From a candidate division WOR-3 bacterium (lineage in GTDB: Bacteria; Hydrothermota; Tepidihabitantia; Tepidihabitantales; DTDR01): 29,413 nt of DNA. Below are positions 2,241-28,542 of this stretch, one piece after another. The position numbers and the translations under genes were made by a program. Within the stretch, counting starts at the first letter, position 1. The number at the start of each line of letters is the position of its first letter. The stretch is taken from NCBI GenBank assembly GCA_039801885.1, contig JBDRVN010000017.1, forward strand, positions 1-29,413. The letters run 5' to 3'. Under the pieces are notes generated by a model, which saw only the letters and a list, made by a program, of their open reading frames with translations, was not told where the DNA came from and ran no database searches.

Positions 2241-3023
2241 TTAAACATTTGATAATTTTTTATATAATTTTTTAATACTCTCGCCATAAAGAATTATTCT
2301 CCCATTTTTAATTTCTCTTTTTTCTTTTATTTGAGATATTAATAAATTGAAAGTTGATTTTTTATCTAACCAAAATTTAACTTCCCGATAATGAATATCG
2401 CTATCGTTTCTCATTTCAATTTCTCCGTGTGTTTTACCAGAAACTTTAAAAACTACTTTCTGGTCGTCAAATTGATTTTTCCCTCTTTTCTTAGAGTTTT
2501 CAACTTCATAATTATTGCTTAAAACTTCAATCACCTCTCGACTCCAAAAAATATGAAATATTTCTTCTTCCTTTATGACTAAAAAATTAACTTCGCCACT
2601 ATTAAACATACTTTTATCAATAAAAGCTTTTAATATTCTTTTTTCCTTTAATTTCTCACATAATTTTCTCATCGGCTCTTGTAATTTTTTCTTATAAAAT
2701 TCTTTATTATTTAAATATTCCTCTCTATTTTCAGGAAAACTTTTAATACATTCTAAAAATATTTCGCCTAATCCATTCATTCCCTGAAAAGTATAATTGC
2801 TTTCAAATCGTGTTTTTCCGTAAAGAAAAATTTGCCATTTCTTTTCGCCACTTTTTACAGAGTAGGAATAGCCATATTCGTCAATCACATCTTTTTTTGC
2901 TTGTGGTTCACTCTTAAATTCTTTCCCGATACCTAAAAGTTCTGCGAATTCTCTACTATCTTCGTGTCCCTTCCTCTTTACATAACTTGCTTTTTCTTTA
3001 CTCATTGCCTTCTTTTTAGGCAT
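2241..3023 (-). CDS. Hypothetical protein, probable type II restriction endonuclease
   Basis: Starts 2 nt after the adenine MTase stop; basic 260-aa soluble protein; KKDVID...SVKS could be a variant PD-(D/E)xK core. The function call rests mainly on context. Confidence 0.55.
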   Translation of the reverse strand: MPKKKAMSKEKASYVKRKGHEDSREFAELLGIGKEFKSEPQAKKDVIDEYGYSYSVKSGEKKWQIFLYGKTRFESNYTFQGMNGLGEIFLECIKSFPENREEYLNNKEFYKKKLQEPMRKLCEKLKEKRILKAFIDKSMFNSGEVNFLVIKEEEIFHIFWSREVIEVLSNNYEVENSKKRGKNQFDDQKVVFKVSGKTHGEIEMRNDSDIHYREVKFWLDKKSTFNLLISQIKEKREIKNGRIILYGESIKKLYKKLSNV

Positions 3024-3025
3024 AA

Positions 3026-3973
3026 TTATCTCTCTTTAATAATTAATAATTCTTTTTCTTTTTTAATATGATTTCTTCTTTCTCTTTTTCGGTTTATTCC
3101 AATTCGTGTCTCTCCTTGTCCTAAAGTGTAATGGGTAGGAAGTTCAATAATTTTAAAATCTTTATACCATTTTCTTATTGTTGGTGAATCGTTATAAGAT
3201 AGAATAAAATTTCCTTTATGAGAGAGAAGCAAGTCTCTTAAAAGTTCATGGTTAAAATTGGTGTGGTGAATTGGAAAATTTCTTTGGGGGTAAAGTCCTC
3301 TAAAAAGTGTGCTATCTTCTCCTAAATAGTAAGGTGGGTCACAGTAAAGGAAATCTTCTTTAAAGTTTGGGATTACTTCTTCAAAAGAAGCGCATTCAAT
3401 TTTTATATTTTTGACATTAAAATTTTTTACTCTTTCCAAAAGACGATTATACATTTCCTCATTAGCATAAACAGAAGACATCCAACCCAAAAAGCCCGGA
3501 CCATAAGAAAGATTATGATTAAAGTAATAATAAGCCGCTAATTTTAAAGGCGATAATTTTATCTTTTCCTGCCAATGTTTTTTAAGTTCTTCTTTTATTT
3601 TATTATAGACCTCTCTGTTCGGTTTTAATTTTTTCAATTCTTGATATAACTCGTAAGGTTTTTCAATTTGTATTTTCCAATAGTTGACAAGAATATCAAA
3701 TATTTCAAATCCTATGACTTCTATTTCCAATTCTTTGGCACAAGCGATTTCAATTGAACCGCCACCGAAAAAAGGAGAAACTAATCTTTTTATGTTGTCG
3801 GGTAGATTTTCGATAACATACCCCACTGCCCAGCTTTTTCCACCAGCATATCTTAAAGGCGACCCTAAATATCTTCTATATTTTTTATTTTTTCCCTGCA
3901 GCTTTTGTAAAAAAAGCTCTTTTTTTGATAATTTTAATTGTTCACTAAATAACAATTGTTGGGAAAAAACCAT
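3026..3973 (-). CDS. DNA adenine methyltransferase (Dam/D12, alpha class)
   Basis: SPLRYAGGKS (motif X), SPFFGGGS (motif I), YCDPPY (motif IV), FILSYND. Confidence 0.93.
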   Translation of the reverse strand: MVFSQQLLFSEQLKLSKKELFLQKLQGKNKKYRRYLGSPLRYAGGKSWAVGYVIENLPDNIKRLVSPFFGGGSIEIACAKELEIEVIGFEIFDILVNYWKIQIEKPYELYQELKKLKPNREVYNKIKEELKKHWQEKIKLSPLKLAAYYYFNHNLSYGPGFLGWMSSVYANEEMYNRLLERVKNFNVKNIKIECASFEEVIPNFKEDFLYCDPPYYLGEDSTLFRGLYPQRNFPIHHTNFNHELLRDLLLSHKGNFILSYNDSPTIRKWYKDFKIIELPTHYTLGQGETRIGINRKRERRNHIKKEKELLIIKER

Positions 3974-5915: not shown

Positions 5916-5943
5916 TTGACAAAAGTTAGTAATTCTTTATAAT
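5916..5943 (+). promoter_or_regulatory. Sigma70-type promoter for radC (leaderless)
   Basis: Consensus TTGACA-16 nt-TATAAT, then 7 nt to the ATG at 5951. Confidence 0.8.
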
Positions 5944-5950
5944 TAACAAA

Positions 5951-6856
5951 ATGGATAATGAGTTAGTTAATTTTTTTATCGAAAGGAAAATTTTACCTTT
6001 TATTTCCAATAAGGGAAAAATATTTTTTAGAGGGAAAGGTTTAAATGATAAAGAAAAAGATAATATTTCTAAGAGATTGGCTCAGTTTATTAAAACCAAA
6101 GAAGATTGTTCAAATTTAAGAAGGAAGATAATTGATAAGATTAAGGAGAATTATAATTTTTTGCCTATCAAAAATTGGGTAGAAGAGGAAAGACCAAGAG
6201 AGCTTTTAATAAAAAAAGGTGAGAGGTCTTTATCCCTTGCCAAATTATTGGCAATTATATTAAGAACCGGCAAAGAAGGAGAGAGTGCCGAAGATTTGGC
6301 AAAGAAATTATTAAACCAGTTTGGTAGTCTTTCAGCAATTGATAATGCAACAATTAATGAGATAAGTAAAGTACCAGGAATTGGTTTAGCAAAGGCTTGT
6401 TCTTTAAAAGCCGCTTTGGAATTAGGAAAAAGATTATTGGTAGAAAAGGCAGAAAGTAAAAAGAAGTTAAAATCACCCCAAGATGTGATTGATTATGTGA
6501 GTGGAAAAATTGGTCCTTATCTATTTAATGCCAAAAAGGAGCATTTTTCGGTTATCTTTTTAGATATTAAAAATAAGGTGATTGATACCTTAGAATTAAG
6601 TAAAGGAAGTAATAATGCCAGTATTGTTGATGTGAAAGAGATAATTTTGGAAGCCACTAAAAGATCAGCAAATGGTGTTATTTTAGTTCATAACCATCCT
6701 TCCGGAGAAACTGAACCTTCTAAGGAAGATATTTCTTTAACTAAAAAGATTATTCAGACTTGTAAGCTCTGTGGAATAAAGGTTTTAGACCATATTATTG
6801 TTGGTAGGAATAAAGAGGGTTATACTAGTTTTTTAAAATTGGGGTTAATTGATTAA
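5951..6856 (+). CDS. radC: RadC family protein (HhH plus JAB/MPN domain) with N-terminal extension
   Basis: ERPRELL, LLAIILRTG, HhH VPGIGLAKA, JAB motif HNHPSG..EPS.ED, VLDHIIVG. Confidence 0.95.
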   Translation: MDNELVNFFIERKILPFISNKGKIFFRGKGLNDKEKDNISKRLAQFIKTKEDCSNLRRKIIDKIKENYNFLPIKNWVEEERPRELLIKKGERSLSLAKLLAIILRTGKEGESAEDLAKKLLNQFGSLSAIDNATINEISKVPGIGLAKACSLKAALELGKRLLVEKAESKKKLKSPQDVIDYVSGKIGPYLFNAKKEHFSVIFLDIKNKVIDTLELSKGSNNASIVDVKEIILEATKRSANGVILVHNHPSGETEPSKEDISLTKKIIQTCKLCGIKVLDHIIVGRNKEGYTSFLKLGLID

Positions 6857-7245
6857 TGTATCTTATTGATGGTTATAATCTTTTACATCAATTTTATAAA
6901 AATATTGGTGAAGATAAGATAAATTATTATCGGGAGGAATTAATTTATCTTATAAAAGATTATTGCGAAATAAAGAGAAAGAAAGCCCAAATATTTTTTG
7001 ATGTGAAAAGTGTCCCTTTGGCTCTTTTACCACCAATTAGATTAAAAAGTGATTATTTAAAGGTTTCTTACGTAAAGGATGCTGATTTAGCAATTATCAA
7101 TATTTTAGAGAATACGAAAGATATTACCCGTTATACGGTTATTTCTTCTGATAGAAAAATAACGGATTATGCCCAAAAGAGAGGATTTAAAGTTTTTTCT
7201 TCAAAAAATTTTAAAACTATCTTATTGACTTTTAAATTAGAATAA
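6856..7245 (+). CDS. NYN domain (YacP/Rae1-like PIN fold) putative RNase
   Basis: YLIDGYNLL, IFFD, DAD..I, VISSDR motifs; start overlaps the radC stop (TAATG). Confidence 0.85.
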   Translation: MYLIDGYNLLHQFYKNIGEDKINYYREELIYLIKDYCEIKRKKAQIFFDVKSVPLALLPPIRLKSDYLKVSYVKDADLAIINILENTKDITRYTVISSDRKITDYAQKRGFKVFSSKNFKTILLTFKLE

Positions 7246-7252
7246 TTAAAAT
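7225..7252 (+). promoter_or_regulatory. Sigma70-type promoter for the four-gene envelope operon
   Basis: TTGACT-16 nt-TAAAAT overlapping the end of the NYN gene; about 50-nt leader with AAGGAGG at 7296-7302. Confidence 0.6.
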
Positions 7253-7309
7253 AAAATAAGTTAAAATAATGTTAATAAGAAATTTATTAAGCGAAAAGGA
7301 GGATTATCT

Positions 7310-8326
7310 ATGAAAGCAAAACTATTAATTTCTATTGGAATAATTGGTATTATTTTACTTTTTTTATCGTGCGGTAATGAACCACCTCCGCCTTTTTTTG
7401 CGGGTGATGGAAATGATTCAGCAGCGATTAGAAATCTTCTTGGAAGCGAAGTCTTAAAAGTTCATCTTTTTGAAGGTACTATGTTTGGCGAAGAAAACTA
7501 TTTGGTTCCGGTAGCGCTTAAAAGGAGTGTCTATTTTGATTCTCTCTTAAAAAAGGATAGACCTTTTATGAAATTCTTTCCAAAAGCCTTTGGTCGCAAG
7601 AAGATAGAAGAAAGAGATTCTTTTAATATCATATTTATCAAAGATACTACCTGTCATGTCTATTTAGTTAGAGAGTTTAAAGATTCCTTATATATCCTTA
7701 CTGATTCAGTTACTCCTTATTTAGCCGATAGTGGTTATTGTGCTAATTATTTTATAAATAAAGAGACACTAATTGTAAAACCTTTTAATGCCATTTCTTG
7801 GCAGGTTGCCTATTTTGAACCAGTTAAGAAAGATACTGAACCAAGAGAGTGGAAATTAAAGAAGATTTCCGGTTGTCAAATTATATTTGCACCGGATGCT
7901 GAAAAAGCACCAATTTTCTATAATCCCTTTGGTGTAATTGTATCTTCATCAACAAAAACTTGCACTATTTTTGAATTGGAATATCAAAGGACTGCCGACC
8001 CCTCTTGTTCTTTAAAGTTTTCTAATAGAAGACTTTTCTATGTTAATGAAGATAGTTGTGAGAAAAAAGATTCTCTTTTATATTTACCAATGGATTCTTT
8101 AAAAGTTAGTTGTAGGTATTGGTTAAATCCTGATGACTCAGTTTATACTTTTGTTTATTATAAAGATGACAATAATAAGTGGCAAAGGGTTTTATCTTCC
8201 GAGAAATTTGTTCTTCCCGAAGGGTTTAATCGTTTTTATGTAGAAGGTATTACTTATGAATGCTTGGCTCATATTAAAAAAGAACCCAGGGCAATTATTT
8301 GGGGAATTGCAACAAGAGTAAAATAA
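7310..8326 (+). CDS. Lipoprotein of unknown function
   Basis: Basic N-terminus, hydrophobic stretch, lipobox FLS-C21, Pro-rich tether; perfect SD. Confidence 0.8.
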   Translation: MKAKLLISIGIIGIILLFLSCGNEPPPPFFAGDGNDSAAIRNLLGSEVLKVHLFEGTMFGEENYLVPVALKRSVYFDSLLKKDRPFMKFFPKAFGRKKIEERDSFNIIFIKDTTCHVYLVREFKDSLYILTDSVTPYLADSGYCANYFINKETLIVKPFNAISWQVAYFEPVKKDTEPREWKLKKISGCQIIFAPDAEKAPIFYNPFGVIVSSSTKTCTIFELEYQRTADPSCSLKFSNRRLFYVNEDSCEKKDSLLYLPMDSLKVSCRYWLNPDDSVYTFVYYKDDNNKWQRVLSSEKFVLPEGFNRFYVEGITYECLAHIKKEPRAIIWGIATRVK

Positions 8327-8340
8327 AAAGGAGGAAAAAA

Positions 8341-11082
8341 ATGCGAAACCTATTAAAAATTATTTTTATCCTGGCGGTATTTTTTTCTTATACCGCCTAT
8401 GCTGGTGAGACAGGAAAAATTGCTGGCCGAATAATTGATGCTAATACTAAAGAGCCGCTTGTTGGTGTTAATGTTATTGTTGAAGGAACCGAGTTGGGAG
8501 CAGCAACCGATGCTACTGGACATTATTTGATTATTAATGTTCCAGTCGGTACTTACGATATTACTGCTTCTTATGTTGGTTATGAACCGGTAAGAGTTAA
8601 AGGTGTGAAAGTTATTGTTGACCAAACGACTTATATTGATTTTCAATTGAAACCGACAGTGATTGAAATTGAAAAGCCGGTAGAAGTTACCGCGGAAAGA
8701 CCGATGGTTATTAAAACTGCTGTCCAGACGACAAGAGTTGCTGGTGAGGAAGAATTAAAGAAATTGCCCTTGACGGTAGTAACTCAATTAGTAAACCTTC
8801 AAGCAGGTGTTGTTACCCATGGTGGGTTTGCTCATGTTCGGGGTGGTAGATATGATGAGGTTTTGACATTAGTTGATGGAATTTCGGCAGTTGATCCATT
8901 TTATCAAATCGCTTATCACCGACCTCCTTCCGCAGCCGTTTCAGAAGTGTCGATTATTACCGGTGGATTTGATGCCGAATATGGCGAAGCAATGTCTGGT
9001 GTTGTTCAGATTATTAAAAAAGAAGGTGGAGAAAGGCATTCGGGAGTTTTAAGATACACCTCTGATGATTTTTTGCCTGCCAAAGCATTGGATTTTGGTT
9101 ATAATTTTTATCAATTCTCTTTAAGTGGTCCTTTGTTTACTAAGAAATTACGTTATGCTGTATCTGGTGAATTGATGCATACCGAAGATGCCAGTCCCAC
9201 AAAATATAAACTTCAAAAACCAAGGGATGAATATACCGGAGATATCAAATTAACTTATAAATTACCAAAATCCAAATTCTCACTTTCTTATTATACTGCT
9301 TGTTATCAATGGCAAGCGTGGGCAAATAGTTGGAAATACTGGCTTGATCATTATGCGGCAATTAGAAGTTTTGGTGACCAACTCGCTTTTAATTTCAATA
9401 CAATGGTGAAAGATAATATGATTTTAGACTTAAAAGCCGGTTATCACTATTATGACCGATTACAAACCGTAAGGGATAAAGAATATCAAAAAGAAGATAA
9501 ATCCCATATTTTAGAAAAACTTGGTCTATGGGATTTATATCGCTTCAAATCCGAAGACTATGTATTTAGAAATCCGGAAGGTCTCTCACCCGAGAGTGCT
9601 GTTTTTAAACTCTGGAAAGATAAAGATGCGAAGTGGACTGAATATAATGTTTCTGATAACAATCCTTGGGGAGTAGGATTATTTTACTGTTATGGTGACT
9701 ATCGGCTCTGGCATTATCGTCAGTCAAAAACCTATGATTTTAAAGGAGATTTCACATATGTTTATAAGAAAATTCACGAGATAAAAACCGGCTTTGAAGC
9801 AAAATTATATTCCTTATGGTTATTAGAAAACTCCTTACCTTGGTCATCTAATCCTTTCTGGGATGCTTATAAGAAAAATCCTTATTCTCTTGCTTATTAT
9901 CTTCAAGACCGAGCCGATTTTGGTGATTTAGTAGTTAGGGCTGGCTTGCGATTTGATATGTTAAATCCAAAATCAAGATACCGTAAATATGGCGAAGGTG
10001 GAACAAATGTGTTGGATACAACAACTACGGAGGCAAAACCAAAGTATAAAATTTCACCAAGGTTAGGAATTAGTTTCCCTGTTACCGAAAGAATGAAGTT
10101 CAGGTTTTCTTACGGTCATTTCTTCCAGTCACCAACATTTACCAATTTATACGAAAGTCTTTTTGCTGATATTATTCAAAGAGGAAATATTATTGTCGGC
10201 AACCCTGATTTAGATGCCCAAAGAACAATTGCTTACGAAAGTGGTTTAGAATGGCAGATGAGTGATTTCTGGGGTGCCGATCTAACTCTCTTCTATAAAG
10301 ATATTTACGACTTGGTTGGTACCAGGCCAGTTCCTGCTTTACCAATGGGTTATACAATTATTACTAATGTGGAATATGGAAGGGTTTTTGGTTTTGAGGT
10401 TGGTTTACAAAAGAGGCTTTCTAATTATTGGAGCGGAAAACTTGCTTATACCTTCCAGATTGCTAAAGGAACTGCAGCCGAAGCTTGGCAATGGTATACC
10501 TTTAATTATCAAGGTATTCCTTTTACCCAAATTGATTATTACTTAGATTATGACCAAAGACATGTGGTCAATTTAGATTTAGGACTTTCCTTCCCCAGCG
10601 ATTTTGTTTTCATTCCTTTAAGAGATTTTGATATTGGTGCGATTTTTAATTTTGGCAGTGGTTTCCCATATACGCCAACGGATATTAGAGGCACAAGAAT
10701 TGGTGATTTGAATTCGGCAAGAATGCCCGCTACTTGGAATATTGATGCCCGACTATCAAAGGATATTAAGATTGGCGGTCTAAATTTGTCGCTTTTCTGT
10801 GATATTTTGAATGTTACTAATCGTTTAAATGTAACAAGTGTGTATTCGGCAACTGGTGCGCCTGACTGGGACGGACAAGTATTTACTGTGGGTCAATTTA
10901 GTTATGGTCAAATTCCAGGTGATGCTGGTTATCATCCGGCAAGAGATTATAACCACGATGGTTGGATTTCCCAAGAAGAAAGATATGATTCTTATATGAA
11001 AGCAAGAGAGGATTACATAAATAATCCAGGAAATTTTGGCTCACCAAGAAGAGTAAGAATTGGAATTGGTTTTGGGTTTTAA
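8341..11082 (+). CDS. TonB-dependent receptor with N-terminal carboxypeptidase-regulatory-like domain
   Basis: Start moved from 8299 to ATG 8341 (AAGGAGG 8328-8334, then signal peptide). GKIAGRIIDANTKEPLVGVNV prealbumin-like domain; TonB-box-like VEVTAER; plug motifs VRGGR..E...VDG and GGFDAEYG..MSGVV; ISPRLGISFP; GNPDL; terminal RIGIGFGF. Confidence 0.93.
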   Translation: MRNLLKIIFILAVFFSYTAYAGETGKIAGRIIDANTKEPLVGVNVIVEGTELGAATDATGHYLIINVPVGTYDITASYVGYEPVRVKGVKVIVDQTTYIDFQLKPTVIEIEKPVEVTAERPMVIKTAVQTTRVAGEEELKKLPLTVVTQLVNLQAGVVTHGGFAHVRGGRYDEVLTLVDGISAVDPFYQIAYHRPPSAAVSEVSIITGGFDAEYGEAMSGVVQIIKKEGGERHSGVLRYTSDDFLPAKALDFGYNFYQFSLSGPLFTKKLRYAVSGELMHTEDASPTKYKLQKPRDEYTGDIKLTYKLPKSKFSLSYYTACYQWQAWANSWKYWLDHYAAIRSFGDQLAFNFNTMVKDNMILDLKAGYHYYDRLQTVRDKEYQKEDKSHILEKLGLWDLYRFKSEDYVFRNPEGLSPESAVFKLWKDKDAKWTEYNVSDNNPWGVGLFYCYGDYRLWHYRQSKTYDFKGDFTYVYKKIHEIKTGFEAKLYSLWLLENSLPWSSNPFWDAYKKNPYSLAYYLQDRADFGDLVVRAGLRFDMLNPKSRYRKYGEGGTNVLDTTTTEAKPKYKISPRLGISFPVTERMKFRFSYGHFFQSPTFTNLYESLFADIIQRGNIIVGNPDLDAQRTIAYESGLEWQMSDFWGADLTLFYKDIYDLVGTRPVPALPMGYTIITNVEYGRVFGFEVGLQKRLSNYWSGKLAYTFQIAKGTAAEAWQWYTFNYQGIPFTQIDYYLDYDQRHVVNLDLGLSFPSDFVFIPLRDFDIGAIFNFGSGFPYTPTDIRGTRIGDLNSARMPATWNIDARLSKDIKIGGLNLSLFCDILNVTNRLNVTSVYSATGAPDWDGQVFTVGQFSYGQIPGDAGYHPARDYNHDGWISQEERYDSYMKAREDYINNPGNFGSPRRVRIGIGFGF

Positions 11083-11094
11083 AAGGAGGAATTT

Positions 11095-14028
11095 ATGTTT
11101 AAGAAATTATTGATTATTTTATCCTTATTTTCTATCGTACTTATCTTTGCTAAAACAGTTACTCCTACTACTGGGAAAAAGGTTTTTGTTCAAAAATGGA
11201 TTGAATATAATCGTTGGCGATATCCAATTCATAACGACGGAAGATTCGGTTATGATGCAACAACCGGAACTGGAGAAGCAGGTGGCTCTTGGCCAAGACC
11301 TTTAAAAAATTTCTATATCTTTGGCGCCGGAGTTTGGATCGGAGCAATTTCTCCTCAAGGAGAGACATTGGTTTCTTGTGGATATGACCCAAATTCGGGT
11401 TCAAGTGAATTGTGGCCGGAAATTTATTCGCGATATACTGGAACGCCTGCTGACGCAGAGGATACTATCTATTATTTCCCTGATAAATGGCCGCCACCAA
11501 AAGATAAGTTTCCAATGGCACCACAAGACACAGTTTCGGGAATGGATGTTTGGTGTTGTTTTTCTGATGCCCATGCTCCCCAACACAAACCTGGTGATAC
11601 AAAGCCAATAGGTGTAGATGTTTACTTAACCGGATATCATTGGAATTTACCATCCAACAGAGATATCTTCTTTCTCAAATATAATGTAAAAAATGTCTCC
11701 GGTGATACCTTGAAAAATATGTATATTGGTGTGGTTTTGGATGCCGATGTTGGTGCTTATAGTGATGATATGATGGCAATGGTTTATGACGAAGCGACAA
11801 GAAGACCAAGAAAATATGTTTACAATAGAACAAGAACCGATTCAATATTTATTGATAATCTTGCTTGGATTTATGATTCAGATAATCGAGAAAATCCCAG
11901 CACAAAATGGGAAAGGGGAGTGCCGGGAGCAGTTGCCTATGACTTTTTACAAAGTCCTTATGCCTTATGGGATGGTATTGATAACGATGGAGATGGGTTG
12001 ATTGATTTCCAAGAAGTTGATAGTGAGTATATTTGGGGTCTTCCAGATACCACATTAAGAGACAGCGACGAAGATGGAATTCCTGCTTGGAGAGATTTTT
12101 CTGAGATAGAACAATTAGGAATGACCAGTTGTAAAAGATGGCCTATTGAAAACGACCCAAGAACCGATGTGGAAAAATATTTAGTTCTTGCTGGCTATGA
12201 CCATACTACAAGAGAATATAAACCTTATGATTATATTGATGAAACACCAGCAGATAAAAGATTTCTTCAATCAAGTGGTCCTTTTACTTTGCCACCGGAT
12301 TCTATCGCCACTTTGGTTGTTGCAGTAATTGCGGCAAAATATGGTGAAGAAGGTCAACCTTATAATCAAAGGGATACTTGGGATTTAGCAAGAACAAGTG
12401 CCGAAGCACAAAGATGTTATGATAAAAACTGGTTATTACCTGGTCCACCATTTCCACCTGTTGTAACTACTATGCCCCAGGATAACCGAGTAATTTTATC
12501 TTGGGATAATCGAATGGAAAAAATTTCTGACCCTTATTATAAAATTGCCCAAAGGAGCGGCGATACTACCTATCGGGAGTATGATTTTGAAGGTTATAAG
12601 GTTTATAAATCTCTTGATGGAGTTGAATGGGAGTTGAAAGCGATTTGTGATTTGAAGAATGGAATTAATTACGCAGATACTTTTAGGACTATCAAAATAA
12701 TCGGTCGTGATACTACTTATCAAGAAAGCATTTTTGTCTGGGCGAATGATAAAGGAACTTTCTATTACTATATTGATGATAGTGTGATTAATGGTCAAAC
12801 CTACTATTATGCAGTCACTTCCTTTGATTATAACAAACTCCGCGGCGAAATTTTGGTATTGGAAACCGGAATTCAAGCAGTGGAAGTAACACCAAGAAGG
12901 GAAGCAGCGAATTATAAGAAACCAACTTCTGATATAAAAATGCTTATCGGCGACAGTATTAATAATAAATTCAAATTTGATATTATCTTCAGTGCTCCTT
13001 ATTTAGTGAAAAATAAAGAATATCTTTTAACTTTCCTTGACCCAATATGCGATTCAGCGAAGAAACAACCAATTTATCAGGCAATAATTACTGATCCGAG
13101 TTATGCGGAAACAATAATCTCTTATCAATTACCTTATACCTTAGGTAAAAATGAAAAATTCTATTTCCCAACCTTTGACGGAACGAATCTTACATTTACA
13201 ATGAAATTAGATACAGCAAAAATTGAACCTTTTGTTTCCTTTGAAATTAAAAATGTTAATGGAAGTTATTCTGCGGAATCTTTAAGAGCTAAAGAATGTC
13301 CGGAGGCTGCTTGGGCATTTCGTGGTTCTGATTACCGACTTGTTTGGGGAAGAAAACCAGAAGGCGGTTTGACATTAGAAGAGGTTTATGATTTAAATAA
13401 TGGAATAAGGGTAGAATATAATCCAAAATTTAATCAAAATACCTATTACAATTATGGTAATTGCTGGGCGTTTCAAATTGGAAGAACTTCACTGCCATCG
13501 GATACTTTGAGGAATAATGAGATATTTATCTATTTACCTGGTGGATATGTCCAAATTAGAAAAGGTGGGGCAATAAATCCGCAAATTAAACAAATGATTC
13601 AACCTGGTGATACTTGGTATATCTATTCTAATAAAACTTATGGAACAGCACCTTCTTATAATAAATTTAAAATAACTACAACAGAAATGGAATTCACTGA
13701 TATGGCTGGTCAAAAATTAAATGTGAAAGTTGTTCCTAATCCTTATATTATTACTAATAGCTGGGAGAAAACAACATTGGCAAGAAGATTACAGTTTGTG
13801 AATTTACCTGATGAATGTACTATTAGGATTTTCAATCTCGCTGGTGATTTGGTGAAGATAATTGAACATAAATCATCAGAAAAAGAAACAAGAAATAATA
13901 AATTTGGTGGTACTGCCGAATGGAATTTACTGAATGAGCACGAACAGAAGGTTTCTAGCGGCGTGTATATTTTCCATGTGGATTCTAAGTATGGTAAACA
14001 AATTGGTAAATTTGCTATTATAATGTAA
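11095..14028 (+). CDS. Large exported protein with EF-hand-like loop, FN3-like domain and T9SS-like C-terminal sorting domain
   Basis: Signal peptide; DNDGDGLIDFQE; FN3-like VILSWD...FEGYKVYKS...YYYAVTSFD; C-terminal VVPNPY...FVNLP..CTIRIFNLAGDLVK...WNL...VSSGVYIFHV...GKFAIIM; SD 11083-11089. Confidence 0.82.
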   Translation: MFKKLLIILSLFSIVLIFAKTVTPTTGKKVFVQKWIEYNRWRYPIHNDGRFGYDATTGTGEAGGSWPRPLKNFYIFGAGVWIGAISPQGETLVSCGYDPNSGSSELWPEIYSRYTGTPADAEDTIYYFPDKWPPPKDKFPMAPQDTVSGMDVWCCFSDAHAPQHKPGDTKPIGVDVYLTGYHWNLPSNRDIFFLKYNVKNVSGDTLKNMYIGVVLDADVGAYSDDMMAMVYDEATRRPRKYVYNRTRTDSIFIDNLAWIYDSDNRENPSTKWERGVPGAVAYDFLQSPYALWDGIDNDGDGLIDFQEVDSEYIWGLPDTTLRDSDEDGIPAWRDFSEIEQLGMTSCKRWPIENDPRTDVEKYLVLAGYDHTTREYKPYDYIDETPADKRFLQSSGPFTLPPDSIATLVVAVIAAKYGEEGQPYNQRDTWDLARTSAEAQRCYDKNWLLPGPPFPPVVTTMPQDNRVILSWDNRMEKISDPYYKIAQRSGDTTYREYDFEGYKVYKSLDGVEWELKAICDLKNGINYADTFRTIKIIGRDTTYQESIFVWANDKGTFYYYIDDSVINGQTYYYAVTSFDYNKLRGEILVLETGIQAVEVTPRREAANYKKPTSDIKMLIGDSINNKFKFDIIFSAPYLVKNKEYLLTFLDPICDSAKKQPIYQAIITDPSYAETIISYQLPYTLGKNEKFYFPTFDGTNLTFTMKLDTAKIEPFVSFEIKNVNGSYSAESLRAKECPEAAWAFRGSDYRLVWGRKPEGGLTLEEVYDLNNGIRVEYNPKFNQNTYYNYGNCWAFQIGRTSLPSDTLRNNEIFIYLPGGYVQIRKGGAINPQIKQMIQPGDTWYIYSNKTYGTAPSYNKFKITTTEMEFTDMAGQKLNVKVVPNPYIITNSWEKTTLARRLQFVNLPDECTIRIFNLAGDLVKIIEHKSSEKETRNNKFGGTAEWNLLNEHEQKVSSGVYIFHVDSKYGKQIGKFAIIM

Positions 14029-14038
14029 GGAGGATAAG

Positions 14039-15067
14039 ATGAGAACTAAATTATTAACATTAGTTTTGATTATAACCGTTGCTTTTGGTGCTTTTGACAA
14101 AAGAGGGACAACCGGTGCTTCTTGGTTAAAGGTTGACGTTGGTCGGGCAAGCGGTATGGGTTCTTCTTTTGTTGCTCTTTCTGATGATGCCACTGCTACT
14201 TTTTACAATCCTGGTGGTTTAGCCCTTTTGACAAAAAGGGTAATTTTCTTTAATCATATTGATTGGATTGCTGACGTTTCCCACGAATATTTAAGTGCTG
14301 TTGTTCCGGCAGGTGTGGTTGGTAACTTTGGTTTTTCTGTGATTGCCTTGACAATGGGAAATATGTTAGAAACCAAAATTGATTCTTTATATACTTCTCA
14401 AAGAGAAGATGAAAGCACCGGTTTACGTTTTGGTGCTTCCGGAATAGCGGTTGGTGTTAGTTTCGCTCGTTATTTTACTGAAAAATTATCAATGGGCATT
14501 GGTGTAAAAGGGATTCAGGAGAGAATTTGGGATATGTCGGCAAGTACTTTTGCCTTTGATGTGGGATTCCATTTCAATACTGGTTTTCATAATTTAAGGA
14601 TTGGTGTTGCTATTAACAATTACGGTCCGGAAATTGCTTATACTGGTGGAAGACTACGAAGGATTGAGAAGGATGAGAAGACTGGAAAAGAGGTTCCAAT
14701 TTCTTATGTCTCAACACCTGTGCCAATTCCAACAACCTTTAGGTTTGGTATTGCTGCTGATTTAATTTCTAATGAAAATTCTCGCTTAACTTCTTGCTTT
14801 GATTTGGTTCATTATAATGATATCAACGAGACTTTTAATATCGGTTTGGAATACTTAATTTCTAAGATGTTTTCTGTAAGAGCCGGTTATATTCTAAATA
14901 CCGATAGTGAATATCGTGACCAAATTCATTGGATGACCGGACTCTCTGGTGGTTTGGGGATAAAAACCAGTTTGATGAACGGAATGGAATTTGAGATTGA
15001 TTATAGTTATCGTCATCATTACTATTTACTGGGTTCCCATCGGGTAAGTCTTAGTTTTGCCTTTTAA
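14039..15067 (+). CDS. PorV/PorQ (UPF0164, FadL-like) outer-membrane beta-barrel protein
   Basis: Signal peptide; GASWLKVDVGRASGMG...DATATFYNPGGL; PTTFRFG; GLEY; DYSY; HRVSLSFAF terminus; SD 14027-14033. Confidence 0.88.
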   Translation: MRTKLLTLVLIITVAFGAFDKRGTTGASWLKVDVGRASGMGSSFVALSDDATATFYNPGGLALLTKRVIFFNHIDWIADVSHEYLSAVVPAGVVGNFGFSVIALTMGNMLETKIDSLYTSQREDESTGLRFGASGIAVGVSFARYFTEKLSMGIGVKGIQERIWDMSASTFAFDVGFHFNTGFHNLRIGVAINNYGPEIAYTGGRLRRIEKDEKTGKEVPISYVSTPVPIPTTFRFGIAADLISNENSRLTSCFDLVHYNDINETFNIGLEYLISKMFSVRAGYILNTDSEYRDQIHWMTGLSGGLGIKTSLMNGMEFEIDYSYRHHYYLLGSHRVSLSFAF

Positions 15068-15090
15068 TAAATATTAAAAGGAAGGCTTTT

Positions 15091-15119
15091 GGGGGTTGAG
15101 CCAATCAACCCCCTTTTTT
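15091..15119 (+). terminator. Intrinsic terminator closing the envelope operon
   Basis: GGGGGTTGA-gccaa-TCAACCCCC perfect 9-bp stem followed by TTTTTT. Confidence 0.88.
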
Positions 15120-15124
15120 ATTTT

Positions 15125-17167
15125 ATGAAGAAACTATTTATACTTTTTACTTTTATAAATCTTCTTTTTGGGAAATCAAAATGGACAATTATTTTATATT
15201 TTGCTTGTGATAATGATTTATCCAATGCTGGTTACCAGGAAATTTTGAAATTGACCAATTTGGGATATAATAAGAAAGTAAAAACAATAATTTTAATAGA
15301 TAATGCCTTTTATGACACCTCACCTTTTCCAAAAATTTATGAGTTAAATAATGGAAATGTTGAGTTAAAAAGAAGATTACCAGAAGATAATATTGCCGAT
15401 GTAAACTTTTTTAGTGATTTTCTCAAATTTGTTAAGGAAAATTACGAAAGTGATAATTATTTTTTAATATTTTATAGCCACGGCAATGGTTGGTATCCGA
15501 GTTTAAGTCGGGCATTTTTGTATGATGAAACAAACCAAAGTTCTCTTTCGGTTGCTGGTGGCGGATTAAAAGAGTTTCTAAAAGAAGCAAAAGAAATATT
15601 TAATAAAAAGATAAGAATTCTTGGTTTTGATGTCTGTCTAATGGGGATGGTGGAAATCTGCTTTGAAATATTTAACTATTGTGATTATCTTTTTGCTTCA
15701 CCCAGTATCTTGCCAGTTTCTGCTTGGGATTATAAAAGTTTGATAAAGAAGATTGAAGAAGAACCAGAGATAAAAATAAAGGAACTTGCTCAATTTTGGT
15801 GTGAGAATAATTTAGAAAATATAAGGAATAGGGGAGAAGAAGGAATTTTTTCTGCTATTGATTTAAACAAATTAAGAAAGGAATATGAAAAGGCATTTTC
15901 TTTTCTGAAAGAAAAGAATAAAAATTCAATTTCTCAAATAAGAAATAAAATTCAAACCTATCCTTTTTTTGAAAGAGAAGATTCTTTGGCTTCCCATATT
16001 GATTTTTTCCATCTTTTGAAAGAATTAAATTTTGAAGGTGAAATATTTTCTTCAATAATCAGTATAAAAAAAACCAATTTTTATAAAAATGGTTACGGTT
16101 TAGCAATATTTTTCCCCTATCACTATCTTGGTTTTAAAAAATATATAAAGGAATACTCTTTATTAACCTTTCAAAAGGAAGTTAAATGGCTTGAATTTCT
16201 GAATGAGTATTATTCTTTAGACGATATAAGACCGGAAAGGATAAAAGAAATAAAGATAGAAAGAAAAAGAAACGATGTTTTTATAAATTTTTTAAAGCCT
16301 TTTGATTTATCAAAGATTAATTACCATTTATATCTCTTTACTCATTTTGATACAATCTTCTACGATTCTTGCGAAAATTTTAATCTCTGGGAGAATTACG
16401 GGTTTTCTCTTTCGGATAGATTTGCTAAAAAAGATAACGCTTTTTATTCGGGCGAAGGTCTTTTGTTAAATAATTATTTGATTACTAAAGAGAAGATAAA
16501 TTTAGAAGAGGGTGGTTTATTAATTTGTGATTTGCTTTATAATACCGAAGAGACTTATTTTAAAAGAATTAAAAGAGATATATTTTATTTAGAATATTCC
16601 TTTGATAAAATTAACTTCTATAAGTTAGATTCCTTTTATGGCAAAAGTGATTATTTTGAAGAAGTAAGGATTTTTTTACCAAAAGGAAATTATTATTTAA
16701 GGTTTCGCTATCAAACTGATTCTTCCATAACTAATTTAGGAGTTTTTATTGATGAGATAAAAATTATTGCCCTTAAAAATTTAAAAGAATATAAAGTTTT
16801 TAATGATACCAATTATTATTTTTATCATTTAAAGAAAGGGAAATATTATCTTTTTGTTATTCCGGTCGATGAATATGGTAATAAAGGATTTAGTAGTGAA
16901 TTTTATTCTTTTGAAATCTTGGATTATGCTTCTATTATTTCTTTGCCAAATCCCTTTCTAAATCAGAATAATTTTTTATTGGATATTCCGAAAAATTCTT
17001 CTTTTCTTTTAAAAATTTATGATTTAAAAGGTAGTTTAGTTTATCAGAGAAAAATAGCAGAAGAAAGAGTATTTTTAGAAGAAATAAAAAATTTAAGAAA
17101 AGGAATTTATCTACTTTTTATTAATGAAAAGGGTTTTAAAATAGGAGGGAAGGTAATTAAGATTTAA
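15125..17167 (+). CDS. Clostripain-family (C11) cysteine peptidase with T9SS-like C-terminal domain
   Basis: Start moved to ATG 15125 (MKKLFILF signal; the 15089 TTG frame reads through the terminator). WTIILYFACDNDL, catalytic His in SHGNGW, catalytic Cys in GFDVCLMG, GLAIFFP; C-terminal PNPF...KIYDLKGSLV...KGIYLL...KVIKI. Confidence 0.85.
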   Translation: MKKLFILFTFINLLFGKSKWTIILYFACDNDLSNAGYQEILKLTNLGYNKKVKTIILIDNAFYDTSPFPKIYELNNGNVELKRRLPEDNIADVNFFSDFLKFVKENYESDNYFLIFYSHGNGWYPSLSRAFLYDETNQSSLSVAGGGLKEFLKEAKEIFNKKIRILGFDVCLMGMVEICFEIFNYCDYLFASPSILPVSAWDYKSLIKKIEEEPEIKIKELAQFWCENNLENIRNRGEEGIFSAIDLNKLRKEYEKAFSFLKEKNKNSISQIRNKIQTYPFFEREDSLASHIDFFHLLKELNFEGEIFSSIISIKKTNFYKNGYGLAIFFPYHYLGFKKYIKEYSLLTFQKEVKWLEFLNEYYSLDDIRPERIKEIKIERKRNDVFINFLKPFDLSKINYHLYLFTHFDTIFYDSCENFNLWENYGFSLSDRFAKKDNAFYSGEGLLLNNYLITKEKINLEEGGLLICDLLYNTEETYFKRIKRDIFYLEYSFDKINFYKLDSFYGKSDYFEEVRIFLPKGNYYLRFRYQTDSSITNLGVFIDEIKIIALKNLKEYKVFNDTNYYFYHLKKGKYYLFVIPVDEYGNKGFSSEFYSFEILDYASIISLPNPFLNQNNFLLDIPKNSSFLLKIYDLKGSLVYQRKIAEERVFLEEIKNLRKGIYLLFINEKGFKIGGKVIKI

Positions 17168-19624
17168 TCAAGAATGGGCTTCTTGCCAGTTTCTACCAAC
17201 ACCAATATTTACTTTTAGTGGCACCTTTAAGGGATAAATATTTTCCATTGTCTCTTTAATAATCTCTTTAGCTTCTTTTATTTTTTCTTCTTCAATTTCA
17301 AATAAAAGTTCGTCGTGGATTGTTAAAATTAAACCGATACTAAATCTATTTTCTATTAGTTTTCTATCTACTTCAACTATTGCTTTTTTTATTATATCAG
17401 CAGCGCTTCCTTGGATTGGTGCATTAATTGCCTGCCTTTTTGCCTGTTCATAAAGGGTTTTGTTTGGTGATAAAAGGGCAGGAAAGTATCTTGGTCGGCC
17501 AAAAAGAGTTTTGGTATAACCTTCTTCTTTTGCTTTTCTTATAACTTCTTCCCGCCACTCTTTTACTTTCGGAAAACTATTTAAATAATTTTCCATAAAC
17601 TCTTTTGCCTCTTCCTTTTTTAGTTTTAAACTTTCTGCCAGTCCATAATCACTCATTCCGTAAATAAGACCATAATTGACCATTTTGGCAAATCTTCTCA
17701 TATCTTCTTTTACCTCTTCTTCTTTTACTTTAAAAATCTTGGCTGCTGTTGTTGTGTGAATATCTTTGTCTTCTAAGAAAATATTTATCAAATTTTCGTC
17801 CTCAGTAATATGGGCTAAAATTCTTAATTCAATTTGGGAATAATCAGCCGAGATTAAAAGATAACCTTCTTCTGAGATAAAGCCCTTTCTAATTTTCTGT
17901 CCTAATTCACCACGAACAGGAATATTTTGTAAGTTAGGTGAAAGGGAAGAAAGTCTACCGGTAGCAGTTTTTGTCTGGTCAAAATAGGTATGAAGACGAT
18001 AGTTATTATCACACATCTCTGGAAAAGGTTTTAAATAGGTAGTTAAAAGTTTATTCAATTCTCGATAACGAAGGATTTTTTCAATTATTGGTGAATAGGG
18101 AATAAGTTCAATCAATACTTCGGAAGCAGTTGACCTTTCTTTTCCTTTGGGAATTGGTAATTTTAATCTATCAAATAATACCTCGGCAAGTTGTTTGGGA
18201 GAGTTAATATTAAATACCAATCCTGATAAATTATAAATCTCTTTCTGTAAAGAAAAAATTTCTCTTTCTAATTCTTTTGTCAATTGTTTGAAAAATTGAA
18301 TGTCAATTTTTATTCCTCTTTTTTCTATTCGGTAAAGGCAGGGGATTAAAGGCATTTCAATATTATAAAAAAGTTTAGTCAAATCTCTTACAAGTAATTC
18401 CGGTAAAATCTGGTGATAAATAGAATAGATATAATAAACCCCTTCCTTTGGTGAAATACTCTTTTTTAAAAATTTTAAATAAGATAAAATCAAATCTTCC
18501 AAAAGAAATCTTTTTCTTTCTGGTTCCAAAAGATAAGCGGCAATTTTAATATCAAAAACATTCTTTAATTCTAAATCTTCTAAATATTTATATTGCTCTT
18601 TCAAATCATAAGTAATTTTTTCTTTTTCACTTAAAAAAAGTTCTTTTAGATTTTCTAAATTTCCTTCGTAGATGCCGTTTTCATTACCAATATATAATTT
18701 CTTATCACTAATCAAAAAGGCAAAATTTTCTTGTTCTTTAATTGGGGATAGGTCAGTAATAATTTTAAATTGCGGTTCAAATTCTATTTTATCCTCTTCA
18801 AAATCATTAAGAAAGGTTTTAAACCCCAGTTCCTTAAAGATTGTTAAAAGTTTTTTGTTATCTCTTTCTTTAAGTCTTAAATCTTCTAAAGAGAATTCAA
18901 TTGGCACATCTTCTTTTAAACTAACCAATTTTTTAGAAAATAAAGCCTCTTCTTCTTTTCCCTTTAATCTTACATCTTCTTCTAATGCCCTTTCTAAGGA
19001 GCCATATCTATTTAAAATCTCTACAGCCGTCTTCTCACCAATCCCTTTAACTCCTGGTATATTATCTATTTTATCGCCAACTAAAGCAAGATAATCGCTT
19101 ATCTTTTCCGGCTCAATACCATATTTTTCTTTTATCTTCTTTTGGTCATAAAATATTTCTTTATAGGTATCGTAAATAATAATATCTTCATCAACAATCG
19201 GAAATAAGTCTTTATCAGTAGCCACGATATAAACTTTGCATCCCATATTTTTCAATCTCTTTGCTAATGTGCAAAGGACATCATCGGCTTCGTACCCAAG
19301 TACTTCTAATACTTTTATACCATAGGCTTCGCATATCTCTTTAATTATTGGGATTTGGTATCTTAAATCACTTGGTGCTTCCGGTCTTAATTTTTTGTAT
19401 TCTAAAAATATCTTATGTCTAAAAGTTGGTGCTTTGGAATCAAATACGCAAGCAATATATTCTATCTTTCTTTCTTTTAAAATCTTTCTTAAAGTATTAA
19501 CAAAACCAAAGATAGCCGAGGTATTTTCTCCCCGAGCATTTCTTAAAGGATTTCTAATAAAGGCATAATAAGAACGAAAAACAAGAGAATGCCCATCTAA
19601 AAGATAGACCTCTTTTTTATTCAT
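17168..19624 (-). CDS. polA: DNA polymerase I
   Basis: 5'-3' exonuclease (LLDGHSLVFRSYYA, YEADD, GDKIDNIPGVKGIGEKTA); polymerase motifs ADYSQIELR, RRFAKMVNYGLIYG, IHDEL. Confidence 0.98.
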   Translation of the reverse strand: MNKKEVYLLDGHSLVFRSYYAFIRNPLRNARGENTSAIFGFVNTLRKILKERKIEYIACVFDSKAPTFRHKIFLEYKKLRPEAPSDLRYQIPIIKEICEAYGIKVLEVLGYEADDVLCTLAKRLKNMGCKVYIVATDKDLFPIVDEDIIIYDTYKEIFYDQKKIKEKYGIEPEKISDYLALVGDKIDNIPGVKGIGEKTAVEILNRYGSLERALEEDVRLKGKEEEALFSKKLVSLKEDVPIEFSLEDLRLKERDNKKLLTIFKELGFKTFLNDFEEDKIEFEPQFKIITDLSPIKEQENFAFLISDKKLYIGNENGIYEGNLENLKELFLSEKEKITYDLKEQYKYLEDLELKNVFDIKIAAYLLEPERKRFLLEDLILSYLKFLKKSISPKEGVYYIYSIYHQILPELLVRDLTKLFYNIEMPLIPCLYRIEKRGIKIDIQFFKQLTKELEREIFSLQKEIYNLSGLVFNINSPKQLAEVLFDRLKLPIPKGKERSTASEVLIELIPYSPIIEKILRYRELNKLLTTYLKPFPEMCDNNYRLHTYFDQTKTATGRLSSLSPNLQNIPVRGELGQKIRKGFISEEGYLLISADYSQIELRILAHITEDENLINIFLEDKDIHTTTAAKIFKVKEEEVKEDMRRFAKMVNYGLIYGMSDYGLAESLKLKKEEAKEFMENYLNSFPKVKEWREEVIRKAKEEGYTKTLFGRPRYFPALLSPNKTLYEQAKRQAINAPIQGSAADIIKKAIVEVDRKLIENRFSIGLILTIHDELLFEIEEEKIKEAKEIIKETMENIYPLKVPLKVNIGVGRNWQEAHS

Positions 19625-23016: not shown

Positions 23017-23045
23017 TTGACAAAAAAAATTTTTTAAGTTATTAT
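23017..23045 (+). promoter_or_regulatory. Sigma70-type promoter for the HEAT-repeat gene (leaderless)
   Basis: TTGACA-17 nt-TATTAT, then 5 nt to the ATG at 23051. Confidence 0.7.
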
Positions 23046-27391: not shown

Positions 27392-27420
27392 TTGACTTTT
27401 CCACTTTTAAAAAATATAAT
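27392..27420 (+). promoter_or_regulatory. Sigma70-type promoter for the M23 peptidase (leaderless)
   Basis: TTGACT-17 nt-TATAAT, then 6 nt to the ATG at 27427. Confidence 0.8.
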
Positions 27421-28513: not shown

Positions 28514-28542
28514 TTGACTTTAAAAATTTTTTAATTTATAAT
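28514..28542 (+). promoter_or_regulatory. Sigma70-type promoter for the repeat surface protein
   Basis: TTGACT-17 nt-TATAAT; about 45-nt leader with AAGGAGG at 28580-28586. Confidence 0.75.

Follow-up and report, generated by a model that had tools for sequence, protein, structure and literature searches.

A four-gene outer-membrane operon of a hot-spring WOR-3 bacterium as a candidate SusD-independent nutrient-uptake module

Glycan uptake in the Bacteroidia is explained by SusC/SusD, in which a TonB-dependent barrel with a CarboxypepD_reg-like domain before its TonB box and plug is paired with SusD, a TPR lipoprotein. PorV barrels bind the C-terminal sorting domains of type IX secretion system (T9SS) cargo. 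Here we analyse a stretch of DNA of 29,413 nucleotides (the window), contig C17 of a genome assembly of 1.56 Mb (70 contigs, 91% complete) from a hot-spring member of the uncultured group WOR-3, a label that the nearest relatives of its proteins also bear, and within it an operon of four exported-protein genes that spans positions 7310–15067 of the forward strand. The genes encode, in this order, a lipoprotein of 338 amino acids (aa), a TonB-dependent receptor of 913 aa, a secreted all-beta protein of 977 aa from an unnamed family, and a 342-aa outer-membrane barrel of the PorV/PorQ family. On balance we consider it probable that the operon encodes an outer-membrane module for nutrient capture and import, composed of a three-part uptake trio (receptor, 977-aa protein and barrel) and a lineage-specific lipoprotein.

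Parts of such an arrangement have been described before. In PorU-PorV and PorZ-PorQ it is established that the C-terminal domain (CTD) is retained, bound to its cognate barrel, and in SprB-SprF and other type-B CTD cargo with PorP/SprF-like barrels the cargo is, as here, encoded together with a private PorV-like barrel that it needs for its handling (PMC10202324). SprB-SprF differs from the present operon in that our barrel is assigned to the PorV/PorQ family by the model NF033709, its cargo is no gliding adhesin, and a receptor gene belongs to the unit. In BtuB-BtuG a surface protein other than SusD forms a stable complex with a TonB-dependent transporter (PMC10404256); BtuG is a lipid-anchored lipoprotein, whereas the candidate partner here would be anchored via a second barrel, and its complex with the receptor is only proposed. 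A precedent for an assembly of two barrels is offered by the barrel assembly machinery of the Bacteroidota, where the 14-stranded FadL/PorV-type BamG binds the surface lipoprotein BamH by its extracellular loops and packs against BamA (PMC12578637), although its function (protein insertion) and families differ and a barrel-barrel contact is hypothetical in our case. Both ingredients are known, a surface partner for TonB-dependent uptake as much as a tail retained on a PorV-family barrel, and it is their combination in one conserved module that is new. A full-text literature search, with subscription journals outside its reach, returned no description of the trio, and the Caldithrix genome paper, in its accessible portion, mentions only B12 and thiamine receptors (PMC5317091).

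The four genes are separated by 14, 12 and 10 nt, and a signal peptide was read by eye, without a predictor, at the N terminus of all four products. The window contains 11 copies of the motif AAGGAGG where 4.70 ± 2.09 would be expected, a count reached in none of 100 shuffles, and four of these sites (7296–7302, 8328–8334, 11083–11089 and 14027–14033, forward strand) directly precede the four operon start codons as Shine-Dalgarno sequences. The preliminary description of this DNA had reported four exported genes spaced 10–14 nt apart, each with an AAGGAGG, and the open reading frames (ORFs) and the motif scan confirm it.

The receptor gene (8341–11082, forward strand) starts at an ATG behind its Shine-Dalgarno sequence, the ORF as listed opening at an upstream TTG (8299). 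The signal peptide is followed by a CarboxypepD_reg-like domain (aa 27–112; PF13715, 71 bits), a TonB-box-like strand (around aa 113–124), a plug (aa 126–221) and the barrel, and the protein passes the Pfam cut-offs for the plug domain (PF07715, 28.5 bits; cut-off 23.9) and for the profile of the 22-strand TonB-dependent barrel (PF00593, 86.8 bits; cut-off 27). Between the N-terminal domain and the plug, 35 receptors share the motif V.A.R-P at a conservation of at least 60%, and this strand, by comparison with the TonB-box consensus, is a putative TonB box. Four TonB_C and five ExbD matches were found in the genome. Among PDB sequences, only a 93-residue chain of the N-terminal domain matched the receptor.

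This layout is shared with SusC, and so is the setting of the receptor gene in the family at large, beside a surface-exposed partner and amid regulators, glycan enzymes and inner-membrane transporters. The SusC/RagA model TIGR04056, however, gives the receptor 45.2 bits against a cut-off of 368.25 and matches it only over profile positions 2–117, that is, over the N-terminal domain; judged by these profiles, it is a receptor of SusC-like N-terminal layout outside the SusC/RagA family. The putative partner differs too: SusD is a TPR lipoprotein whereas the protein encoded here is an all-beta chain of about 1000 aa with no lipobox and with a T9SS-type tail, and there is a third component, the PorV/PorQ-family barrel. 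Neither Pfam nor NCBIfam models detect SusD in the operon, and PF07980 has no match in the 91%-complete genome, while the positive control, Bacteroides thetaiotaomicron, was matched. The earlier statement that the operon holds neither SusD nor a hydrolase therefore stands for SusD, in the operon and in the genome, and is qualified by a C11 peptidase gene that begins at 15125.

The barrel gene (14039–15067, forward strand) matches the PorV/PorQ-family model NF033709 with 179.9 bits (cut-off 90) over profile positions 1–326. The equivalog scores all lie under their cut-offs, at 77.4 bits for PorQ (220), 56.1 for PorV (250) and 52.3 for PorV2 (325; models NF033710 and NF033711 for PorV/PorQ). Seven PorV/PorQ-family matches were found in the genome, the operon barrel among them. 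A general pair is present on contig C8 (4742–9400; locus L075), where the gene for a PorU-like sortase of 1168 aa (281 bits; cut-off 420) stands before that of a barrel with its highest score as PorV (90.6 bits), and because of this pair we regard the operon barrel as a private paralogue and not as the general shuttle. A second PorU-like gene lies on contig C42.

The C-terminal beta-sandwich domain of the 977-aa protein (aa 871–977; 13705–14025, forward strand; motif KVVPNPY) is the predicted barrel anchor and the most conserved segment of the chain: in alignment A1, conservation is at least 90% in 28% of its columns, compared with 15%, 17% and 7% in the three domains before it. When the barrel (aa 19–342) was modelled together with the tail (aa 868–977), with an alignment of 35 rows for each, ipSAE was 0.91 in all three runs against 0.00 for the best of three controls, at least 90% of the contacts were common to the runs, and the partner pLDDT was at least 78. 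On this model, binding of the C-terminal domain of the 977-aa protein by the barrel is a high-confidence prediction, and together with the PorU-PorV-like pair on C8 the result supports the suggestion, made in the preliminary description, of a PorV paralogue dedicated to this protein. The tail weakly matches the C-terminus of PorZ (26.1 bits) and that of PorU (21.9 bits), and the barrel weakly matches PorQ. Like PorZ-PorQ and PorU-PorV, in which the tail is retained on a cognate PorV-family barrel (PMC10202324), the operon combines a best-conserved tail with a barrel onto which that tail is modelled; unlike them, it scores below the equivalog cut-offs, has a different passenger fold, and keeps its genes adjacent, tied to a TonB-dependent receptor, in several copies in some genomes and in catabolic loci.

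Relatives of the 977-aa protein are numerous. Among 7999 candidates scored, 3065 reached E ≤ 0.001; the family comprises 4387 representatives of clusters at 50% identity, of which 2058 were found at 1e-10 and 289 at 1e-30, and all 30 of the nearest Protein Atlas clusters are unnamed. Within the phylum, 72 of 81 genomes carry the family (E ≤ 1e-20), the genome studied here with one full trio and one short paralogue of 451 aa on contig C1. A scan of one genome per species returned 548 stretches encoding such relatives, the best 80 of which were resolved into 74 loci (L numbers hereafter). Their ORFs were searched by phmmer with five window proteins, and the counts below refer to 67 relatives of at least 600 aa. 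The loci are labelled WOR-3, Stahlbacteria, TA06, Zixibacteria, Latescibacterota, Edwardsbacteria, Mcinerneyibacteriota, Ignavibacteriota/Melioribacteraceae, Calditrichota, Neomarinimicrobiota/Marinisomatota/Fidelibacterota, Gemmatimonadota and Bacteroidota, a few bins bearing implausible labels.

A receptor lies directly upstream of the 977-aa relative in 46 of the 53 cases with at least 1.5 kb of room, and a barrel directly downstream in 45 of the 53 with at least 0.9 kb. Both neighbours are strictly adjacent in 35 of 43 testable loci and all three genes are present in 41. Six of the eight exceptions (L030, L035, L039, L053, L059 and L071) keep all three genes; in these a small ORF lies in between, ORF calls overlap, a duplicate stands in tandem or the order is permuted. 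The other two (L007, L022) are loners. The preliminary description had mentioned similar gene trios from genomes of the Fibrobacterota-Chlorobiota-Bacteroidota (FCB) group outside the Bacteroidia and had called for a check of gene order in relatives; the order receptor, 977-aa protein, barrel is in fact kept across FCB phyla, and the trio is far more strongly conserved than that mention suggested. The module also occurs in variants, as tandem or convergent double trios (L006, L059, L064), with two 977-like genes before one barrel (L053) and in the order receptor, barrel, 977-like gene (L071).

To describe the setting of the complete trios, two genes on each side were scanned with Pfam, which covered 55 proteins upstream in 32 loci and 58 proteins downstream in 33, ORFs matching the five queries being set aside. 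Upstream we found LacI-type regulators in five of the 32 loci (L032, L036, L047, L054, L061), T9SS-tailed proteins in 18 (three with CBM_4_9), SurA-like rotamases in three and TonB in one. Downstream there are GH94 phosphorylases (L032, L038, L054, L060), sugar-binding ABC proteins (L036, L047, L066), alpha-amylases (L037, L058), a CBM20 protein (L065) and also GH2 and DUF3131/glucoamylase-like genes; a carbohydrate-active or sugar-uptake gene lies within two genes downstream in 10 of the 33 loci, or in 11 when a sodium:solute symporter is counted. Other loci have a peptidase instead, of the C11 family in the window, L001, L002 and L004 and, upstream, in L045, of the M16 family in L050, and with a C39-like domain in L008. 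From this flanking gene content the trio appears to take the place of SusC/SusD in loci that resemble polysaccharide utilisation loci (PULs) and differ in their predicted substrates. These PUL-like contexts in other phyla, together with the lack of a SusD match in the genome, speak for the SusD-independent uptake put forward earlier. A SurA-like multi-rotamase gene stands directly 5' of the receptor gene in one clade (L037, L052, L074; Bacteroidota and Fidelibacterota records), and a rotamase gene occurs among CTD-protein genes on contig C1 of the present genome.

In the mechanism that we propose, the 977-aa protein would be exported by Sec and then by the T9SS. Its C-terminal domain would be kept and bound non-covalently to the co-encoded barrel, holding the protein on the surface as in PorQ-PorZ and PorV-PorU. 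The remaining domains, a supersandwich, an FN3-like domain and a variable beta domain, would bind a polymeric substrate or its fragments at the surface, and the protein would hand this substrate to the adjacent TonB-dependent receptor, with import powered via TonB-ExbBD and the WOR-3-specific lipoprotein as an accessory. In FCB lineages without SusD the trio would in this way replace SusC/SusD in role, and in the present organism the substrate may be peptides or glycopeptides freed by the neighbouring C11 peptidase. The gene set, its conservation and co-divergence and its genomic setting are observed and the tail-to-barrel contact is modelled, whereas retention at the surface, binding of a ligand and its transfer to the receptor are steps that we infer.

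The main rival to this mechanism holds that the 977-aa protein is a surface-anchored enzyme (a glycanase, lyase, epimerase or similar), that the receptor imports its products, and that the barrel is only a dedicated T9SS shuttle or anchor; we consider this unlikely. The gene (11095–14028, forward strand) encodes a protein with no Pfam match, and its sole NCBIfam match is that of its C-terminus to the PorZ tail; its family profile retrieved nothing from PDB sequences at E ≤ 0.1, so that no enzyme family was matched in Pfam, NCBIfam or PDB sequences. An AlphaFold2 model built from 57 sequences (pLDDT 84.6, pTM 0.80) gave, with the whole chain in Foldseek against the PDB, no whole-chain match and only FN3 arrays at low TM scores of 0.07–0.24. 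A search independent of Foldseek identified aa ~28–450/510 as a supersandwich, with Z scores of 20.3 (9ju0; root mean square deviation 3.2, 259 residues aligned), 19.9 (1ulv, the N-domain of a GH15 glucodextranase) and 19.8 (1lf6), followed by the N-domains of GH94, GH116 and GH65, mutarotase-like proteins, GH174 fucanases (15.4 and 13.0) and the periplasmic domain of YidC (13.3).

From these data we delimit a galactose-mutarotase-like supersandwich domain (aa 30–450; 11182–12444) with a calcium-loop-like insert DGxDNDGDG, an FN3-like domain (aa 451–600; 12445–12894) recognised from the predicted secondary structure and the FN3 arrays at the top of the Foldseek hits, and a variable beta domain (aa 601–870; 12895–13704), the least conserved part, with 1% of columns at least 90% conserved in alignment A3. 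The best matches are mostly non-catalytic N-domains, those of GH15, GH94, GH116 and GH65, which argues against an enzyme, but they also include mutarotase-like and GH174 chains (aa 601–870 was not searched on its own), and in some families, aldose 1-epimerases and GH174 fucanases, a supersandwich does serve catalysis. In addition, the N-terminal domain carries D158 and D225, invariant across phyla, together with many near-invariant Asp, His and Trp residues, and glycan enzymes are abundant in the loci; it is because of the two invariant aspartates that an enzymatic role keeps some probability. Against it, a catalytic Pfam domain was found in none of 20 longer relatives (one has PA14, one a dockerin), and the family accompanies loci of differing predicted substrates (alpha-glucan; beta-glucan or cellodextrin; peptidase), so that a generic partner fits better than a single catalytic activity.

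Less probable still is linkage without a shared complex, in which the receptor would import a small nutrient alone and the 977-aa protein would be an adhesin or surface-layer-type protein with a private anchor, co-regulated only. It draws on the putative nature of any interface between the 977-aa protein and the receptor, on receptor-less relatives (L007, L022), and on FN3 and calcium-loop features, which are common in adhesins. What speaks against it is the strict gene order, with gaps of 10–14 nt here, that is kept across phyla, and the way in which the three genes have diverged. FastTree trees of receptor, 977-aa protein and barrel were built from 34 complete trios and the window, loci with any of the three genes incomplete being left out. 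Compared in pairs, the trees have 27, 23 and 22 of 32 splits in common, the receptor and the 977-aa protein agreeing best (27), and the distance matrices correlate with Spearman coefficients of 0.84, 0.75 and 0.85, values reached by none of 999 Mantel permutations, a congruence that is partly shared species history. The trees favour co-divergence; the preliminary description had proposed such a comparison for CTDs and their adjacent PorV paralogues. Independent of species phylogeny are three genomes that, judged by contig names, have two trios each (L001/L012, L002/L010, L004/L009), since each of the three trees sorts the paralogues into the same two clades, {window, L006, L001, L002, L004} and {L012, L013, L009, L010}. 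Because paralogous trios sort alike, whole trios duplicate and diverge as units, as would be expected if their parts are partner-specific.

It is decidedly improbable that the 977-aa protein and the barrel form a core attachment-complex pair of the T9SS, a counterpart of PorZ-PorQ, with the receptor-like barrel as a secretion accessory and the locus serving secretion instead of uptake. Such a role would agree with the higher score of the barrel as PorQ than as PorV (77.4 and 56.1 bits), with the C-terminus of PorZ as the best match of the 977-aa tail, and with the single full trio in this genome. Yet all scores lie below the equivalog cut-offs of 220, 250 and 260 bits, and the model of the 977-aa protein shows a supersandwich and not a PorZ-like double propeller. 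Other genomes have two or more trios, some in tandem, and trios stand behind LacI regulators amid catabolic genes; the receptor, moreover, has a plug and a TonB-box-like strand. Another PorQ-like barrel also exists in the window (20395–21306, reverse strand; 303 aa; NF033709, 122 bits), which is 25% identical to the operon barrel and scores higher as PorQ than as PorV (70.8 against 30.1 bits). It stands alone between nucleotidyltransferase-like and purH-like genes, and it may be the true PorQ of the organism.

The 977-aa protein is a candidate for T9SS cargo: it has a Sec signal read by eye, a modelled beta-sandwich tail and a modelled binding of this tail to the barrel, and the genome has PorU-like and PorV genes and 56 type-A tail matches, while SprA was not found in this assembly. 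The search for secretion and energy genes that had been suggested earlier was successful for TonB, ExbD and PorU-like genes and left SprA, GldK and GldM unmatched in the assembly. For SprA, the profile search gave no match in this assembly beyond a 26-bit stretch common to unrelated proteins of about 1000–1200 aa in other genomes. SprA was found in 79 of the 81 genomes that represent the phylum, in three of three of the genus and in all 10 trio-bearing genomes of other phyla that were searched, and we read its absence here as an assembly gap, which is unproven. The GldM model matched neither the own genome nor 21 relatives nor any of eight other-phylum genomes with SprA, and because of these last eight its silence is uninformative; GldK had no match in the own assembly and partial matches in five of 21 relatives, none above the cut-off. 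The SprA-like ORFs of WOR-3 measure about 1750–2000 aa, compared with 2245–2441 aa in two Bacteroidota genomes. The idea, voiced as an alternative in the preliminary description, that the 977-aa protein leaves the cell without SprA, by a minimal export route made up of the receptor barrel and the PorV-like barrel, takes its appeal from the three unmatched genes and from the lack of a tblastn hit to the same-genus SprA, but we consider it very improbable given an assembly of 91% completeness in 70 contigs, the near-universal SprA of relatives and of trio carriers in other phyla, the meaningless silence of GldM, the TonB and ExbD partners, and the importer layout of the receptor with its plug and TonB-box-like strand.

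Returning to the uptake module, some observations weigh against it. The type-A CTD models (TIGR04183, PF18962) gave no hit on the 977-aa tail at E ≤ 0.01, and the tail is absent from the 56 type-A tail matches (TIGR04183) of the genome, which include the neighbouring C11 protein; the domain, described earlier as a VVPNPY-type CTD, misses the type-A thresholds and resembles the retained CTDs of PorZ and PorU. A tblastn search with the 1782-aa SprA of the same genus found no hit in the assembly, so that T9SS export here rests on relatives. Of 157 solved complexes, 116 attained the ipSAE mark used for the tail-barrel model, as did two of 215 mismatched pairs; these counts are only rough because the alignments of the analysis itself were supplied, and the score of the complex may stem from a resemblance to PorV-cargo structures that have been solved. 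A receptor is not an obligate companion of the family: partnerless relatives exist, some of at least 600 aa without receptor or barrel (L007, L022) and others short or truncated (L015, L019, L020, L025, L026, L046). Add to this the share of species history in the tree congruence and the catalytic uses of the supersandwich fold; the lid or hand-over role on the receptor, finally, is drawn from gene linkage.

With these points in mind, we advance more tentatively, and with somewhat less than even confidence, a wider proposal: that FCB bacteria outside the Bacteroidia share an undescribed two-barrel mode of polymer uptake, in which a T9SS-exported, non-lipidated beta protein of about 1000 residues, permanently tail-bound to a private PorV/PorQ-type barrel, caps or feeds the receptor. 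Beyond the Bacteroidia, TonB-dependent receptors stand in catabolic loci of most FCB phyla (among them WOR-3, Ignavibacteriota, Calditrichota, Marinisomatota, Zixibacteria and Gemmatimonadota), and the one genome searched for SusD gave no match. If the trio is one machine, the missing partner of these receptors would have a name, and type IX secretion would be linked to nutrient import, indeed would be a prerequisite for it. SusD would gain a functional counterpart that is not homologous to it, and the anchoring of a retained tail on a barrel, as in PorZ-PorQ, would extend to a large class of surface proteins. The trio could also be used as a marker for polymer-utilisation loci in uncultured FCB genomes.

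The lipoprotein encoded by the first gene (7310–8326, forward strand; lipobox LFLS-C, identified by eye) has no match in Pfam or NCBIfam. Its 22 relatives all come from WOR-3-type sources, and in WOR-3 loci the homologues lie directly upstream of the receptor, including ORFs of about 370 aa in the sister paralogue clade; the lipobox Cys is nearly invariant among them. The AlphaFold2 model reaches a pLDDT of 72, its best structural match has a Z score of 5.5, and Foldseek gave no hit at E ≤ 0.001, from which no function is inferred. The lipoprotein would be a WOR-3-restricted accessory of the trio.

As a promoter, the preliminary description had named a single site before the operon. A sigma-70-like candidate, TTGACT-16-TAAAAT, is indeed found at 7225–7252 (forward strand; 10 of 12 consensus matches), 58 nt ahead of the first ATG, a placement like that of other strong intergenic sites in the window. 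The DNA is A+T-rich and 47 promoter-like sites were found in the scanned region against 37.9 ± 5.8 expected, so that the site is weak evidence taken alone. Sigma-70-type sites with 11–12 of 12 matches lie in intergenic DNA just 5' of genes at 5916–5943, 23017–23045, 27392–27420 and 28514–28542 (forward strand), and from these we conclude that the host plausibly uses classical -35/-10 promoters. The assignment at 7225–7252 is, on sequence grounds, plausible.

Downstream of the barrel gene, an intrinsic terminator candidate at 15091–15123 (forward strand) consists of a hairpin (15091–15113) of nine pairs, six of them G-C, followed by TTTTTTATTT. In three scans covering the window, its G-C pair count was the highest among 28 terminator-like sites, in agreement with its earlier designation as the clearest terminator of the window, and its folding energy is -19.1 kcal/mol (z -2.16). 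Strong G+C-rich hairpins also occur right after the barrel gene, ahead of C11 genes, in three relatives (L001:9496–9560, L002:8333–8420, L004:7698–7790), where the position is kept and the sequence is not. One base past the T-run begins the gene for the C11 (clostripain-family) peptidase (15125–17167, forward strand; PF03415, 118.4 bits), which carries a T9SS C-terminal domain of type A (TIGR04183, 26.2 bits). Among the nearest relatives, all three with a gene of this kind (L001, L002, L004) have it in the same position, and the peptidase gene is probably a conserved neighbour on a separate or attenuated transcript. In one metatranscriptome run, available as contigs, nine short contigs, six of them at an identity of at least 99%, fall on all four operon genes, which indicates presence in an RNA library only. 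The contigs of RNA library X5 do not cover 6800–7501 or 15224–17300, gaps in contig cover that are uninformative.

The short paralogue of the 977-aa protein on contig C1 (31039–32394; locus L076:2043–3395, reverse strand) combines the supersandwich part with a type-A T9SS tail and lies without receptor or barrel; similar forms of 430–530 aa recur in other WOR-3 genomes. As candidates for fused 977-aa/PorV forms, two longer PorV-containing proteins were considered and rejected, one being unrelated to the 977-aa protein (BLASTP E 5.2) and the other carrying CARDB and OmpA, a blank that counts as weak evidence. Elsewhere in the window, two adjacent ORFs at 2241–3973 (reverse strand) resemble a restriction-modification pair, and the 315-aa one of the two shows by eye a DPPY motif, as is typical of N6-adenine methyltransferases. 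At 28592–29413 (forward strand, running off the end of the window) an exported protein with repeats of about 95 residues (HDVGV...PVDT...) gives a sub-threshold CARDB match of 18.2 bits.

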